A DNA stretch of 64,000 nucleotides from a virus. Its lineage: Duplodnaviria; Caudoviricetes. The stretch spans positions 96,001 to 160,000 of the IMG/VR virus record IMGVR_UViG_3300028624_000003, one strand, 5' to 3'. Under the pieces are notes generated by a model. The model was not told where the DNA came from and did no database searches. It worked only from the letters and a program-made list of their open reading frames with translations. A program made the position numbers and the translations under genes. Position 1 is the stretch's first letter; each line of letters starts with the position of its first letter. This document shows positions 16,610 through 21,744 of this stretch, piece after piece.

Positions 16610-18238
16610 ATGGGTATCAAATTTGACGGCATCGACGACGACACCGTTGCTCAGGAATCCCAGCAGAACGTTGGTGGCGTCCATGACAACGTCAGCGCTC
16701 CTCGTCGTGACCTGGGTGCCGAACGTGCTGCTCGCAGCACGGCTACTGCAGGCCGCGGGTTCGAGCAGCTCATGTATTCGCTGCAGTCCTCGAACAAGCT
16801 CACCGAGACCGCAACCGGTTTCCTTGAAAGTGTGCGCAAGCAGGTCAGCAATCAGAACAAGAAGATTCAGTTCTTCGATCTTCCGAAGACCTGCACCTCC
16901 TTCTTCGTGGATGGTGCTGAATGCGTCGGCTTCGTCTTCGAAGAAGCGCTTCGTGAATCCCAGCTCCGCAAGGGTTCGGACACGATCCTCATGGAAGTCA
17001 TGAAGGACTTCGAGACTGCCACCATCGACAAGAAGGGTGCCGAGAAGATCCTCGACATCGTGATCGTCACCTCCGACAGCTACGGTAAGAGCAACGTCTG
17101 GTCCAATTTCGTCGTGAACACTCTTCGTTCGGACGACTACGCCAGCCTGAAGTTCACCAACATGAACGCCAACAACGTGCGGTACTCCCTCGTGAGCGAC
17201 CTTCGTCAGGTGAAGGAAATGTTCTCCGACATGTCTCCTCACGCGACACCGGCGCGCATCGACTTCGGTTGCTCGGTCACCATGGAAGTGATGCCCGACG
17301 ATCGCCGCGACTACACTCGCGAAGATCATGACGAAATCCCCATCGGTGTTATCGGCGGCTACACCCGCTTCTACCTGATCGATGACCTGCAGGATGTCAA
17401 GTTCCAGCCTGTCATCTGCATCAGTGACATCCAGTCGAACATCCGGAACCATCGTGTTCTGCCCATCCTGCTTGCCAGCTTCCTTGACTACGCGGTCAAT
17501 GCGAAGGGCTGGCTTTCCCCGTACAGCCAGTTCGGTCCCAACAACCCGAACCTCGGCAACCTCTGGATCGATCCCGAAACTGACCAGCCGGTTGAGCTGG
17601 AATCTCTGGATCGTCTCGACCGCTTCGTGCGTGCCAAGTTCCTCGAACCCGTGGTCGTCTGCGAAATCCAGCCTGGCCGTGCGGGTATCCCGTCGCTGTG
17701 GCGCTACGCCGATCCGAAGCAGCAGGGCTTCATGCTTCAGGATCTCGCAGAATACCTGAACGCTCCTCAGATCGCAGATCTCGGCGAGCTCTTCGTGCCT
17801 CACTACGAACATCTGTCGTACTCCGGCTACGTTCAGGACCGTGGGGTCTGGATCGATACCCGCGAAATCGACTACTTCCGTGCCATCGGCATCACCCGTG
17901 ATCGTGATCTGCGTGATCGGTTCATCATCCCCGAAGACGACATGTCCGCAGAAATCGACAACATCAAGGAACTCGGTTTCAAGGAAGTCCGTCGCATCTG
18001 GACCACGTACCCCTGCAGCATCGCTACCAACAGCCTCGAACAGATCCTTGTTCACATGGGTGCTGGTGGTGGTCTCGCGCTTCGTACCGACTACAAGCAG
18101 CGCATGACGGTGAGTGTTTCCAGCTACACCGACCTCGGTCGCGGCATGCGCGACATCCTGCAGCGCAACCAGGTTACCAACCGGTTCCCGCTGATGGAAC
18201 GTGGTCGACGCAGCCTGCGAAACCTCAGCGGTCGCTAG
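16610..18238 (+). CDS. chmA: Probable chimallin (phage nuclear shell protein)
   Basis: ATG 16610, 542 aa; immediately upstream of the nvRNAP catalytic beta-prime gene, as phiKZ gp54-gp55; strong C-ending codon bias; own promoter and terminator; PARIDF...IGGYTRF...FQPVICISDI...W...NLGNL resembles recalled ChmA motifs. Confidence 0.7.
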   Translation: MGIKFDGIDDDTVAQESQQNVGGVHDNVSAPRRDLGAERAARSTATAGRGFEQLMYSLQSSNKLTETATGFLESVRKQVSNQNKKIQFFDLPKTCTSFFVDGAECVGFVFEEALRESQLRKGSDTILMEVMKDFETATIDKKGAEKILDIVIVTSDSYGKSNVWSNFVVNTLRSDDYASLKFTNMNANNVRYSLVSDLRQVKEMFSDMSPHATPARIDFGCSVTMEVMPDDRRDYTREDHDEIPIGVIGGYTRFYLIDDLQDVKFQPVICISDIQSNIRNHRVLPILLASFLDYAVNAKGWLSPYSQFGPNNPNLGNLWIDPETDQPVELESLDRLDRFVRAKFLEPVVVCEIQPGRAGIPSLWRYADPKQQGFMLQDLAEYLNAPQIADLGELFVPHYEHLSYSGYVQDRGVWIDTREIDYFRAIGITRDRDLRDRFIIPEDDMSAEIDNIKELGFKEVRRIWTTYPCSIATNSLEQILVHMGAGGGLALRTDYKQRMTVSVSSYTDLGRGMRDILQRNQVTNRFPLMERGRRSLRNLSGR

Positions 18239-18329: not shown

Positions 18330-21300
18330 TTGAAGAAGTCCAGCGTGTTCAGTAAGAAGAATCTGATCAGACTGATCGATTTCGATAAACTGCATGCCGA
18401 TTCTCCTGGGGCAAGAGCACTCAATGACTCTGACTTAACAGGACGAAAACAAGCAGCAGAACGAATAAGTCAGGCGTTCTACGACATTGAAGCAGAACTA
18501 GGGTTTGTAGCTTCTTGTCAATGCAAAGAGTATCGAGGCAACTACTACGCGGGACATGTCTGCAAGATCTGTGGTACTGTGGTATCTACTGAATTTGCAG
18601 AAAATATCGAGCACGTGAATTGGCTGATCCTACCAGATCACGTCCCGCCTGTCATGCACCCGGTATTCTTTGCTGCACTGAACTCATTCCTGGGAAAAGT
18701 CAAAGTCAACGACGCAAAGCTGGGGAAGAAAAGTATCCCACTTCTGCAGTCTATACTGGATCCCAGTGAAGAACTATTCGAGCCAGTAAAGACACACATC
18801 AGAGCGCAAGGCTTCCGGTACTTCTACAAGCACTGCAAAGAAATCATGAACTTCTTCTTTGAAGTCTATCCAAAGACAAAAAGTAAGAAGGACGTCATAC
18901 ACATCCGTGCTCTTTATGAAGAGTACAAAGACAGGATGTGGGTCAAAAAGATACCGGCACTACATCCTACACTCACGCCACAGGCCAAAGAGTGCAGGGT
19001 ACGTACAATCGACCATGCTGCCGGTTACATCATGTCAGCAGCTGCTGACCTCTCTGCTCTATCCTACGAATCCAAGCGATGTATTACTGATTCGAAGTAT
19101 GTCGACCGTCAGCTATGGAAGATGTACGTCAACGTCATCAAGTACACTGAACAGATTCTCGAGAAGAAGTTCGGTGACAAATATGCACACGCTAGACGCC
19201 ACGTCATGGGCGCACGGATTCATTTTTCTGCCAGATCCGTCATCGTACCTATCGTAGAGCCTCACATGGGTGATGAGATTCATCTCCCATGGAAGATCGC
19301 ACTAGGTGGCCTCAAACTCGAGATTCTGAACATCTTGACCACTCGCAGTGTGATAGATGTAGAAGATGAACATGGCGAGCGTGTAAAGAGACCGCACACA
19401 ATCGCCGAGGCCACAGCCAAATATATGCGGGCACTCGTCGTATACGACGAAGACATCAAGAAGGTCATCGATCTCTTGATCAAAGAGTGTCCGTGTAAGG
19501 GTCTACCAATACTTTGCGGGCGCAACCCGACGCTCGTACTGGGTGCAATTCAGCTTCTGTACTTTACCAAGGTAAAGACGGATATGGCAGATGAAACCAT
19601 CGCCATATCTCCTCGAATCTGCAAAGCACCCAATGCTAAATACAACTCCTCGTTGCACATCGCCCCTAGCAGGAGGCGTACATGCAGCAGTTCGTCAATT
19701 TACCTGGAAAATACTCAGGATATTCAATATCCGCGGACGGTAGAATTCTCGACAACTCTACCGGACAGTTGGTAGTTCCTACCAAAGGTAAAAATACTCC
19801 GTACTACGGGGTCACAATGCGTCTAGTTGGTGATGCTCGAAGTACTACACAACTAGTGCATCGACTGATCGCATTGGCCTTTGTTCCAAATGAAACAGGA
19901 ATATCAGCAGACGAGTTACAGGTCAATCACATCAATGGGAACAAACTCGACAACCGTCCATGTAATCTTGAGTGGGTCACTCAGCAACAAAATTGCGCGC
20001 ATGCGTATCGAACAGGTTTGCGAAACGACAATAAACCTATTCGCATGGTTGCAGAGAATACAGGTGAGACTAGTATAGTCTACAGCTTATCCGAAGCTGC
20101 TAGACTGCTAGGTGTGCACCCTGCCTCACTTCATGAGCACATGAACACAGAACGTCGACAATGTTTACCATATCGTGGATACTACGTAACTTATCACGAC
20201 GATCGTCTAGATCGTTTTCAGAATAGGGTACGGCGTATGTGCGAAGGGAGTTGGTAAATTGGCTCGCGCAGAAGTAATTCTGTGACGATAATCTCCTTAA
20301 TTGCTGGGAACCCCTTAGAGCTCTCGTAGCTACAACGTAAGGATGAAATATGCCTAAGCGTGACAGCTCAAAAATACGAGAGATTGGGCAATCAGCAGCC
20401 AAGCTCCGAATAGGAGAAGGTTCAACGACTATTCCTGAAATGGAAGTACAGACTAAGCAGTCTGGGAATAGGAGACACCCTACTGGGGTGAAGATATAGT
20501 CTCATCTTTAGTGAAAGCTAAAGCTGCAGGTAATGCTGCGAGTACCATCTAGCGAATGGTACTGAAGATAATGGATTTCGATTCACAGGTCGAAATAAAA
20601 TCCCGGAATAAAGCAGGGACGGTCTGCTCGACCCAATCTGAACCGAAGGCTACTAGGGATAGTAGTCAGGGGCAACGCGTAGTCTCAGGGCTAGAACAGC
20701 TATCAGGGACCACGAGGCCGGGACATTCGAGAGTATTCGCACTGAGGAGAACTAGTGGAGAATACTGTGGAAATTCCTGGGTATCCAGGATACCGAGCAT
20801 CACGAGACGGACACGTCTGGAGTACATACAGCAATAAGTGGTTGTGCGAGATGCTGCACCGGCGAGGATACCCTCAGGTGTTGCTGAAAATCGACAAATC
20901 GACCTACAGATTGCGGTATGTTCATCGGTTAGTAGCACTGGCATTTATCCCAAATCCAAAACTGATGACTCAGGTCAATCATATCGATGGCAATAAACAG
21001 AACAATTGCGTCGATAATTTGGAGTGGGTAGATAACCTAGAGAATGCGCGACATGCGATGGCTCATGGGCTGATGCCACATGCAAAAATCGATGAGCCGA
21101 CAGCTCACGTCATTTGTCAGAGATTGGAGAATGGCGAAAAAGTGGTGGATATTGCAAGGGACTTAAATGTACCCTACTATACCGTACACGCCATTCGGCT
21201 AGGTAGAAACTGGAAAGAAGTATCTACTCAGTACACAATCCCTGGGAAAAGAAAACGTAGAGTTGTCTTTACACCAGAAGAAGTCAGACACATCTATTAC

Positions 21301-21744
21301 AACGCGGTTGTGAAGGGGTATCCAATTGGAACTCTAGCGGAGCAATACCAGGTGGATCCAGAGCTTATACGCAGGATTGCTTCTGGTAAAAACTACCGAA
21401 AAATAACCCGAGAGATGTGCGATGCTTTCGAATGAAAACGTACGCTGAGCTGCGCTTATACGAGCTCCTACCGAAAGTAGGACCCAGAAATGGGAAGGCG
21501 CAGAACTATCGGATAAAAAGCCGGTAGGGTAACATAACTGGGTGACGAAATGTACATCATCTTCATCAAGGAGATGGGTATGGTTCCGTTTCTACAAACA
21601 CTACACCCACGGATGACGATGATTTCTAAGTCGGACTTGTCGGTAGGCGAACTGGTCATGCCTACAAGTCAGGCTACGGTACATCTCAACTCATTCCTCA
21701 ACATGGGGTTGGATGCACCGAGATCGCAGAGATTCGAACTATAA
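18330..21744 (+). CDS. nvRNAP catalytic beta-prime N-terminal subunit (phiKZ gp55-like), spliced: 18330-19637 + 20574-20582 + 21541-21744 (506 aa)
   Basis: Zn finger CQC...CKIC; GARIHFSARSVI; GRNPTL; the joined exons read APNA-DFD-GDEMY, restoring NADFDGD. Confidence 0.9.
19638..20573 (+). ncRNA. Group I intron 1 (HNH gene in the extended P1 loop)
   Basis: 5' exon ends in U; guide AAATTGGC 20256-20263; core elements AATTGCTGGGAA, AATCAGCAGCC, GTTCAACGACTA, AAGATATAGTC; terminal G at 20573. Confidence 0.9.
19682..20257 (+). CDS. Intron-encoded NUMOD4-HNH homing endonuclease
   Basis: YSISADGRI; VHRLIALAFVPN...VNHINGNKLDNRPCNLEWVTQQQN; C-terminal HTH-like segment; AGGAGG RBS. Confidence 0.9.
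   Translation: MQQFVNLPGKYSGYSISADGRILDNSTGQLVVPTKGKNTPYYGVTMRLVGDARSTTQLVHRLIALAFVPNETGISADELQVNHINGNKLDNRPCNLEWVTQQQNCAHAYRTGLRNDNKPIRMVAENTGETSIVYSLSEAARLLGVHPASLHEHMNTERRQCLPYRGYYVTYHDDRLDRFQNRVRRMCEGSW
20583..21540 (+). ncRNA. Group I intron 2 (HNH gene in the P8 loop)
   Basis: P1 ATTTCGAT/GTCGAAAT with a U-G splice pair; P3 TCCCGG/CCGGGA; P7 GCGTA/TACGC; P8 CATTCGAGAGTATTCGCAC/GTGCGATGCTTTCGAATG flanks the HNH gene; terminal G at 21540. Confidence 0.85.
20755..21435 (+). CDS. Intron-encoded NUMOD4-HNH homing endonuclease with HTH repeats
   Basis: IPGYPGYRASRDGHV; VHRLVALAFIPN...VNHIDGNKQNNCVDNLEWV; GAGGAG RBS before GTG. Confidence 0.9.
   Translation: MENTVEIPGYPGYRASRDGHVWSTYSNKWLCEMLHRRGYPQVLLKIDKSTYRLRYVHRLVALAFIPNPKLMTQVNHIDGNKQNNCVDNLEWVDNLENARHAMAHGLMPHAKIDEPTAHVICQRLENGEKVVDIARDLNVPYYTVHAIRLGRNWKEVSTQYTIPGKRKRRVVFTPEEVRHIYYNAVVKGYPIGTLAEQYQVDPELIRRIASGKNYRKITREMCDAFE

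Follow-up and report, generated by a model that had tools for sequence, protein, structure and literature searches.

The window analysed here is a stretch of 64,000 nucleotides, comprising bases 96001-160000 of the 220,982-bp IMG/VR virus record IMGVR_UViG_3300028624_000003, which has direct terminal repeats and is estimated to be a complete genome. On the plus strand of this window, to which all positions refer unless stated otherwise, a gene assigned to the phiKZ gp55-type beta'-N subunits of the non-virion RNA polymerase (nvRNAP) extends from 18330 to 21744. It is divided into three exons, the second of which comprises only 9 nt, and each of the two intervening sequences contains an open reading frame (ORF) for a putative HNH homing endonuclease. 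On the evidence given below it is very probable that the intervening sequences are two tandem group I introns, with sites 9 nt apart in the codons of the motif NADFDGD, and that the gene is spliced to give a subunit of 506 amino acids.

The split polymerase gene

Exon 1 (18330-19637) comprises 436 codons, with a start that possibly lies a few codons further downstream, and ends with ...AAA GCA CCC AAT GCT at T19637 (CCCAATGCT, 19629-19637), behind which the reading frame enters non-homologous sequence. The microexon GATTTCGAT (20574-20582) reads GAT TTC GAT and encodes Asp-Phe-Asp, which includes two of the three catalytic aspartates. Exon 3 (21541-21744) is preceded by G21540, opens with GGTGACGAAATG (21541-21552), that is GGT GAC GAA ATG TAC..., and encodes 67 residues (GDEMYIIFIKEMGMVPFLQT...RFEL) followed by the stop at 21744. 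Joined together the exons read ...ISPRICKAPNA + DFD + GDEMYIIFIKEMGMVPFLQTLHPRMT... and amount to 436 + 3 + 67 = 506 residues; APNADFDGDEMY are the predicted junction-spanning residues of the double-spliced product and APNADFDGDEMYIIFIK is the predicted peptide. These exon borders had been proposed in an original prediction made from the letters of the window, and all coordinates read as they were claimed there; the structure is also missed by ORF callers, as the same prediction had stated.

The assignment of the gene as a probable nvRNAP beta'-N subunit is based on full-length homology, on the motif NADFDGD and on a genomic position which is that of gene 55 in phiKZ. Exon 1 shares 26% identity with PHIKZ055 over 97% of its length (tblastn) and matches phrog_2987, 'RNA polymerase beta subunit', with 235.6 bits at profile positions 6-417 of 478. 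A search among 5.8 billion proteins yielded 27 protein relatives. Three of these (P0006, P0007 and P0008) are uninterrupted homologs, and all three show a contiguous NADFDGDE(M/L)Y at the position of the microexon. The intronless P0006 (507 aa, 68% identity), which matches chain A of PDB 7OGP with E = 1e-30, reads ...ISARICKAPNADFDGDEMYILFIKEMGMVPFLQNLHPRMT... and ...KAPNADFDGDEMYILFIKEMGMVPFLQ... and is collinear with exon 1, DFD and exon 3, so that the microexon fills NA-DFD-GD; exon 3 was likewise aligned by eye to P0006, P0007 and P0008. The collinearity of the three intronless proteins agrees with the earlier claim that double splicing is needed. Used as a query against the phage's own genome, P0006 matched only exon 1 (query 4-441) and exon 3 (query 434-507, 70% identity). 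No second copy of a gp55 homolog was found by this search of the complete phage genome, and the gene is single-copy. Near-identical DNA among GenBank phages and close relatives in IMG/VR, looked for by peptide patterns, were both not found; the relatives were taken from the protein collection.

The motif NADFDGD is present only after the presumed splicing, and the splice sites given above are the only choice that keeps both frame and motif. Since the microexon reading alone yields the invariant motif, the gene cannot work without the microexon.

The two introns and their endonuclease genes

Intron 1 (19638-20573, 936 nt) is of the type described by the Rfam model RF00028, which it matches over all 253 model positions at 20242-20523 with 84.4 bits (gathering score 50). 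Homologs of its core and 3' tail are present in the phiKZ intron (L001, 75.6 bits) and in an ORF-less intron of the related locus L014 (L014:4580-4942, 85.2 bits), and its terminal G20573 aligns with the terminal G of both. The helix P1 is formed by GCUAA, with the splice site behind GCU, and UUGGC (19635-19639/20259-20263); it comprises 5 bp with the wobble U19637.G20261 at the splice site, and is found alike in the window, L007 and L014 when these three homologs are folded to minimum energy. The Rfam score, the U.G wobble and the terminal G argue for a group I intron. P1 is extended by a stem of CAACUCC with GGAGUUG (19643-19649/20247-20253), which folds, carries the endonuclease ORF in its loop and covaries, reading CCAACUCU/AGAGUUGG in L007 and UCAAUUC/GGAUUGA in L014. 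Also common to the folds of these three homologs is P2, a hairpin that has a GNRA loop (20267-20284), with compensatory changes among the helices. The internal guide (20256-20263) provides UUGGC (20259-20263) for P1 and AAAUU (20256-20260) for a possible P10 with GAUUU at 20574-20578; the complementarity of AAATT to the first five microexon bases is thus present as originally described.

The predicted endonuclease gene of intron 1 (19682-20257, 191 aa, HNH_3) has an AGGAGG 7 nt upstream of its ATG, and its stop codon overlaps the P10 guide. The product matches PF13392 with 42.4 bits (cutoff 24.8) and phrog_59 with 132.7 bits, and shares 46% identity with phiKZ gp56 across the HNH region. In L007 (Logan ERR7764203, L007:5179-5310), whose exon 1 is 99% identical, the HNH gene of intron 1 is internally deleted and exon 1 runs through into the last ~25 codons of the HNH ORF. 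The guide region differs there by 2 nt (UAACUGGC versus UAAAUUGGC in the window), by which P10 is weakened. Homing endonuclease genes usually decay in this way.

Intron 2 (20583-21540, 958 nt) belongs to a group I family that is undetected by Rfam. The original prediction had named group I covariance models as a check, which supported intron 1 and did not recover intron 2. Its guide GUCGAAAU (DNA GTCGAAAT, 20589-20596) forms an 8-bp P1, AUUUCGAU/GUCGAAAU, with 20575-20582, which are eight of the nine microexon bases as had been claimed; the wobble U20582.G20589 lies at the splice site and the duplex has an energy of -7.9 kcal/mol. A possible P10 joins UCAC (20583-20586) with GUGA (21542-21545) at -4.0 kcal/mol. 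Covariation is also seen between the guide and the wobble base of the exon, since TTC is accompanied by GUCGAA in the window, L008 and L009 and TTT by GUCAAA in L012 and L014.

The 5' part of the intron 2 core (20601-20723) was delimited by threading the window on the family structure and by pair statistics. It contains P3 (20601-20606/20718-20723), P4, P5 and P6 (within 20613-20672), the 5' strand of P7, GCGUA (20677-20681), and an extra P7.1-like region (20683-20709), all placed by the threading. P8 is a 10-bp complement of CAUUCGAGAG and CUUUCGAAUG (20724-20733/21425-21434), which occupies the same position in the family (helix 10) and encloses the ORF. The 3' part (21435-21540) begins with J8/7 and the 3' strand of P7 (AAAACGUACGC; UACGC at 21441-21445), followed by P9 (21450-21455/21498-21503, again by threading), a hairpin with the conserved loop GAUAAAAAGC (21506-21527) and a tail that ends at G21540, which is aligned with the terminal G throughout the family.

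At least 99 IMG/VR loci belong to this family according to a pattern from two conserved blocks. To test covariation, 71 ORF-less members were aligned (A1), for which the RNAalifold consensus together with an imposed P7 pseudoknot gave 12 helices with 48 pairs. Of all cells in these pairs 93.6% are paired, against 32-40% if the partners are slid by 1-3 columns; compensatory double changes were seen in 35 pairs, compared to a shuffled mean of 27.6, and the covariation score of 0.522 (shuffled mean 0.159) was reached by none of 500 shuffles. A separate pair count with the window included gave the same picture. The order of the helices is P3-(P4, P5, P6)-P7-extra hairpin-P3'-P8-P7'-P9 with further hairpins, including the P3/P7 pseudoknot. 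P7 is 100% paired in 67 sequences and shows an exchange of A-U to G-C (GCAUA/UAUGC versus GCGUA/UACGC), the window having the latter version and threading onto every family helix. This core topology, the U.G pair in the P1 of guide and exon and the terminal G point to a group I intron. One covarying hairpin (helices 8 and 9) lies between P7 and P3', at the position of P7.1/P7.2, so that the intron may belong to subgroup IA. With the RF00028 match of intron 1 and the family structure and covariation of intron 2, the proposal of two tandem group I introns holds.

The predicted endonuclease gene of intron 2 (20755-21435, 226 aa) starts with GTG and encodes HNH_3 and a helix-turn-helix-like C-terminal part; its product matches PF13392 with 36.2 bits (cutoff 24.8) and phrog_59 with 180.8 bits, and is 52% identical to the ORF in the intron of L009. 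Both ORFs are considered as putative HNH homing endonucleases due to their HNH_3 matches above the Pfam cutoff and their locations in the loop of the P1 extension and in P8. The two proteins share 38% identity over 115 aa with a common N-terminal domain, and are therefore related though the two ribozymes are not. Homologs of intron 2 at the same site, between DFD and G, are found in L008 (ORF-less, 349 nt), L009/L010, L012/L013 and L014, the intron of L012/L013 carrying a different HNH gene in another loop. Weak BLASTN matches also connect intron 2 to an ORF-less intron of 258 nt in the RNA polymerase gene of Aeromonas phage PS1.

Members of the intron 2 family occur in other contexts as well. 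On the minus strand of an IMG/VR locus (L094:1050-2184) three ORF-less copies lie within ~1.1 kb, and tandem arrays are found in other genes too. Several Firmicutes phages (L005:1801-1833 and other Clostridium/Enterocloster records) have short unannotated stretches that match the tail of intron 2 together with its 3' hairpin, the loop of which is GATAAAAAGCC. The stretch in phiCD211 immediately adjoins an annotated Intron_gpI, an indication that such introns are cut short in annotations.

Course of splicing and alternative readings

If both introns are active, the 5' splice site of intron 1 would be set by its short P1 and that of the possibly IA-like intron 2 by the 8-bp P1 wholly inside the microexon, the HNH genes being accommodated in the P1 extension and in P8, respectively. 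Each ribozyme would excise itself by an attack of free guanosine, followed by an attack of the 5' exon after the terminal G, and the joined mRNA would encode the 506-aa subunit with an intact NADFDGD. The pairing of each guide is confined to the exon it belongs to, namely to GCU in the case of intron 1 and to eight of the nine microexon bases in that of intron 2; therefore neither intron needs the other to be removed first, and either order is feasible. The HNH enzymes would have driven homing into the invariant DNA stretch, and the accumulation of introns in this motif would be the footprint of repeated independent invasions.

Several observations weigh against this reading. RF00028 gave no match to either half of intron 2 at E values up to 10, nor to the relatives L003, L004, L006, L008 and L009. 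RF00028 is a single model and misses some group I subgroups. As Rfam is blind to intron 2, its group I identity rests on the structure and covariation worked out in this analysis. The P1 of intron 1 has just three exon base pairs, and the exon sequence CCAAUGCU can pair with GGAGUUGG (one mismatch), which would compete for the strand of the P1 extension. As a guide of intron 1, GGAGUUGG (20247-20254) was rejected, since in three homologs these bases are engaged in a covarying stem with 19643-19649, and since L014 does not allow the pairing. Finally, nanopore transcriptomics of phiKZ detected no spliced reads for the predicted introns under the conditions used (PMC10914365); the joined protein, on the other hand, is the one modelled in PDB 7OGP.

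The original prediction had gone further and assumed that both ribozymes compete for the microexon, so that splicing is ordered and its efficiency, or skipping of the microexon, gates the production of the nvRNAP and with it the switch to nvRNAP transcription. We regard such an obligate order with a gate as unlikely. The overlap itself is real, as the bases 20575-20578 serve both the P1 of intron 2 and the P10 of intron 1, which is the sole conflict between the guides. Skipping of the 9 nt would indeed remove DFD in frame and with it two catalytic aspartates, and exon skipping in a phage group I system is documented for the SIOphi terminase (PMC11878797). However, the two pairings are very different in strength: the P10 of intron 1 amounts to about -1.0 kcal/mol, the P1 of intron 2 to -7.9 kcal/mol. 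P10 is moreover degraded in the other two introns found between NA and D, with the guides UAACUGGC in L007 and UUCAUUGGC in L014. Group I introns can generally do without a P10. It is likely that intron 1 ligates without P10, or once intron 2 has gone. Both introns are found alone at their sites in relatives, with guides that fit their own exons. Exon 3 has almost no complementarity to the guide of intron 1 (-0.5 kcal/mol), and so nothing positively favours skipping. The scattered pattern of none to three introns among relatives and the decaying endonuclease gene of L007 are marks of selfish homing rather than of a conserved regulatory device, and give no pointer to regulation. The overlap of the pairings was thus confirmed, while the enforced order was not borne out and the proposed switch found no support.

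A weaker form, in which the shared microexon merely biases the order and some transcripts skip the 9 nt to give an in-frame beta'-N without two catalytic aspartates, is judged to be improbable to a somewhat higher degree. If it were true, the skipped product could form a dead polymerase, and the fidelity of splicing would tune non-virion transcription where transcription is uncoupled from translation.

It is very improbable that the gene is dead or split, that is, that one or both insertions remain unspliced and the phage makes fragments or uses another polymerase. The missing Rfam match of intron 2 and the lack of spliced reads in the long-read data of phiKZ (PMC10914365) would fit such a state. 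Against it, the exons are intact with 67-70% identity to the intronless homolog and no frameshift, and no second gene copy is present in the genome. Both introns keep complete cores supported by covariation, with U at the 5' site and G at the 3' end, and the same layouts are seen in assemblies that are independent of each other (L012 and L013, which have different sources, and L014) as well as in the viable cultured phage Goslar. Least probable of all are other splice sites, such as one after AAT as in phiKZ with CCAAU paired to GUUGG: GGAGUUGG (20247-20254) can pair with CCAAU(GCU), but with the 3' site at G20573 this choice gives NDFDGD, one residue short of the invariant motif, while GGAGUUG is held in the covarying intramolecular stem and the 6-nt exon AATGCT of L014, bounded on both sides, fixes the site after GCT, so that splicing after AAT was rejected on grounds of frame and motif.

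Insertion points in related phages and known systems

Related phages contain none, one, two or three introns in the NADFDGD motif. Reading of the loci gave insertion points between P and N (L012, L014), between N and A (phiKZ), between NA and D (window, L007, L014), between DFD and G (window, L008, L009, L012, L014) and between DFDG and D (Aeromonas PS1 and Erwinia pEa_SNUABM_54). In L012 two introns flank a microexon of 15 nt. L014 (L014:4249-5051, Logan SRR29305601) has three tandem group I introns with the microexons AATGCT (6 nt) and GATTTTGAT (9 nt) between them; two adjacent RF00028 matches are found there, and the contig ends within the third intron. Among the GenBank phages 65 of the 231 matching records align unbroken across the motif. 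At least five insertion points are therefore located in or beside the 21 nt coding for NADFDGD, or six if Goslar is included, with up to three introns at once and exons of 6-15 nt.

The closest precedent is the phiKZ intron between gp55 and gp56, which had already been named in the original prediction. It interrupts the same gene in the same motif, and intron 1 has a homologous ribozyme with similar core blocks and a similar 3' tail. The HNH gene likewise lies upstream of the core, and PHIKZ054, annotated as nuclear shell protein, adjoins. The joined product of PHIKZ055 and PHIKZ056.1, which is the chain A modelled in PDB 7OGP, comprises 508 aa with a contiguous NADFDGD. In contrast to the window, phiKZ has one intron only, which is inserted 3 nt upstream, between N and A, and has the matching guide GUUGGG; the second, unrelated intron 9 nt downstream, and hence the microexon, are found in the window. 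In phiKZ (L001:5250-5280) a 7-bp duplex could also form between the guide CGUUGGG and CCCAAUG in the very last bases of the gp56 ORF, a possible P1 decoy that translation would disrupt.

Like the window, phage Goslar (MK327938; L117:3378-5185) has two tandem introns in the NADFDGD codons of its nvRNAP beta'-N gene. The sites differ, being located within the F codon and after GDA. Exon 1 ends with ...GCC GAC TT, behind the annotated intron and its HNH gene lies the 13-nt exon CGACGGTGACGCT, and the last exon reads ATG AAC AAC CAT... The annotation (Intron_gpI, 46.9 bits) covers the first intron only. The second, unannotated core is group I-like (aattgctggga..., cagcagcgaagctcc..., gttcaacgaatac...); Rfam gave no report for it at E < 0.01, and a description in the literature was not found.

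Group I introns with HNH genes are known from the polymerase genes of chimalliviruses, namely gp56, gp72 and gp179 of phiKZ and gp210 of PhiPA3 (PMC11620839). In PhiPA3 the interrupted gene, gp210, codes for the beta subunit of the virion polymerase and has one such intron, located at conserved Asp codons; nicking by its enzyme was demonstrated on the allele of a co-infecting phage that lacks the intron (PMC11620839). Several group I introns per phage gene are known from rNDPL of phiNIT1 and TerL of SIOphi (Bastillevirinae), where cDNA sequencing revealed exon skipping and, between two introns, a small exon (PMC11878797); other genes are affected there, not a polymerase catalytic motif. In the RNA polymerase genes polr2a and polr2b of Bodo saltans virus, a eukaryotic giant virus, several group I introns carry HNH or GIY-YIG genes; RT-PCR confirmed that these introns are spliced, and in the view of the authors they are weapons in virus competition; microexons are not mentioned in the available part of that report (PMC5871332). 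Microexons between self-splicing introns, missed by gene callers, are reported from organelles, such as a 1-bp exon in placozoan cox1 (PMC5436844) and fungal mini-exons (PMC10352661), which are mitochondrial cases and not from phages. A description of tandem introns with a microexon in NADFDGD was not found in the literature. Another phage gene, orf142 of Twort, reportedly also has multiple introns and exon skipping, and again is not a polymerase catalytic motif.

If the introns of the window are spliced as proposed, they illustrate how densely an essential active site can be occupied by selfish introns. Gene callers and Rfam together miss the true gene, as the intron 2 family is invisible to RF00028, and the polymerase subunits of jumbo phages need splice-aware annotation models. 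Two adjacent natural ribozymes with a common 9-nt exon would also be a compact test system for guide competition, exon skipping and endonuclease rivalry between co-infecting phages.

Two further observations concern the same genome. Upstream of exon 1 an ORF (16610-18238) sits where phiKZ has the chimallin gene (gp54). BLASTP revealed no similarity of this ORF to phiKZ gp54 (E = 0.64), and no Pfam or PHROG match was obtained; it may encode a nuclear-shell protein by synteny, for which the sequence gave no confirmation. Outside the window, a second RF00028 intron (90.8 bits) was found at 187384-187684 of the genome (G000:C1:187384-187684; L114:1501-1801). As in intron 1, an HNH ORF, here of 339 aa, lies upstream of the core. 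The intron splits another large gene, reading ...LLLPGVTQDD before and MRTRTGYERVVAQR... behind the insertion, which possibly encodes a beta-type subunit of the polymerase.

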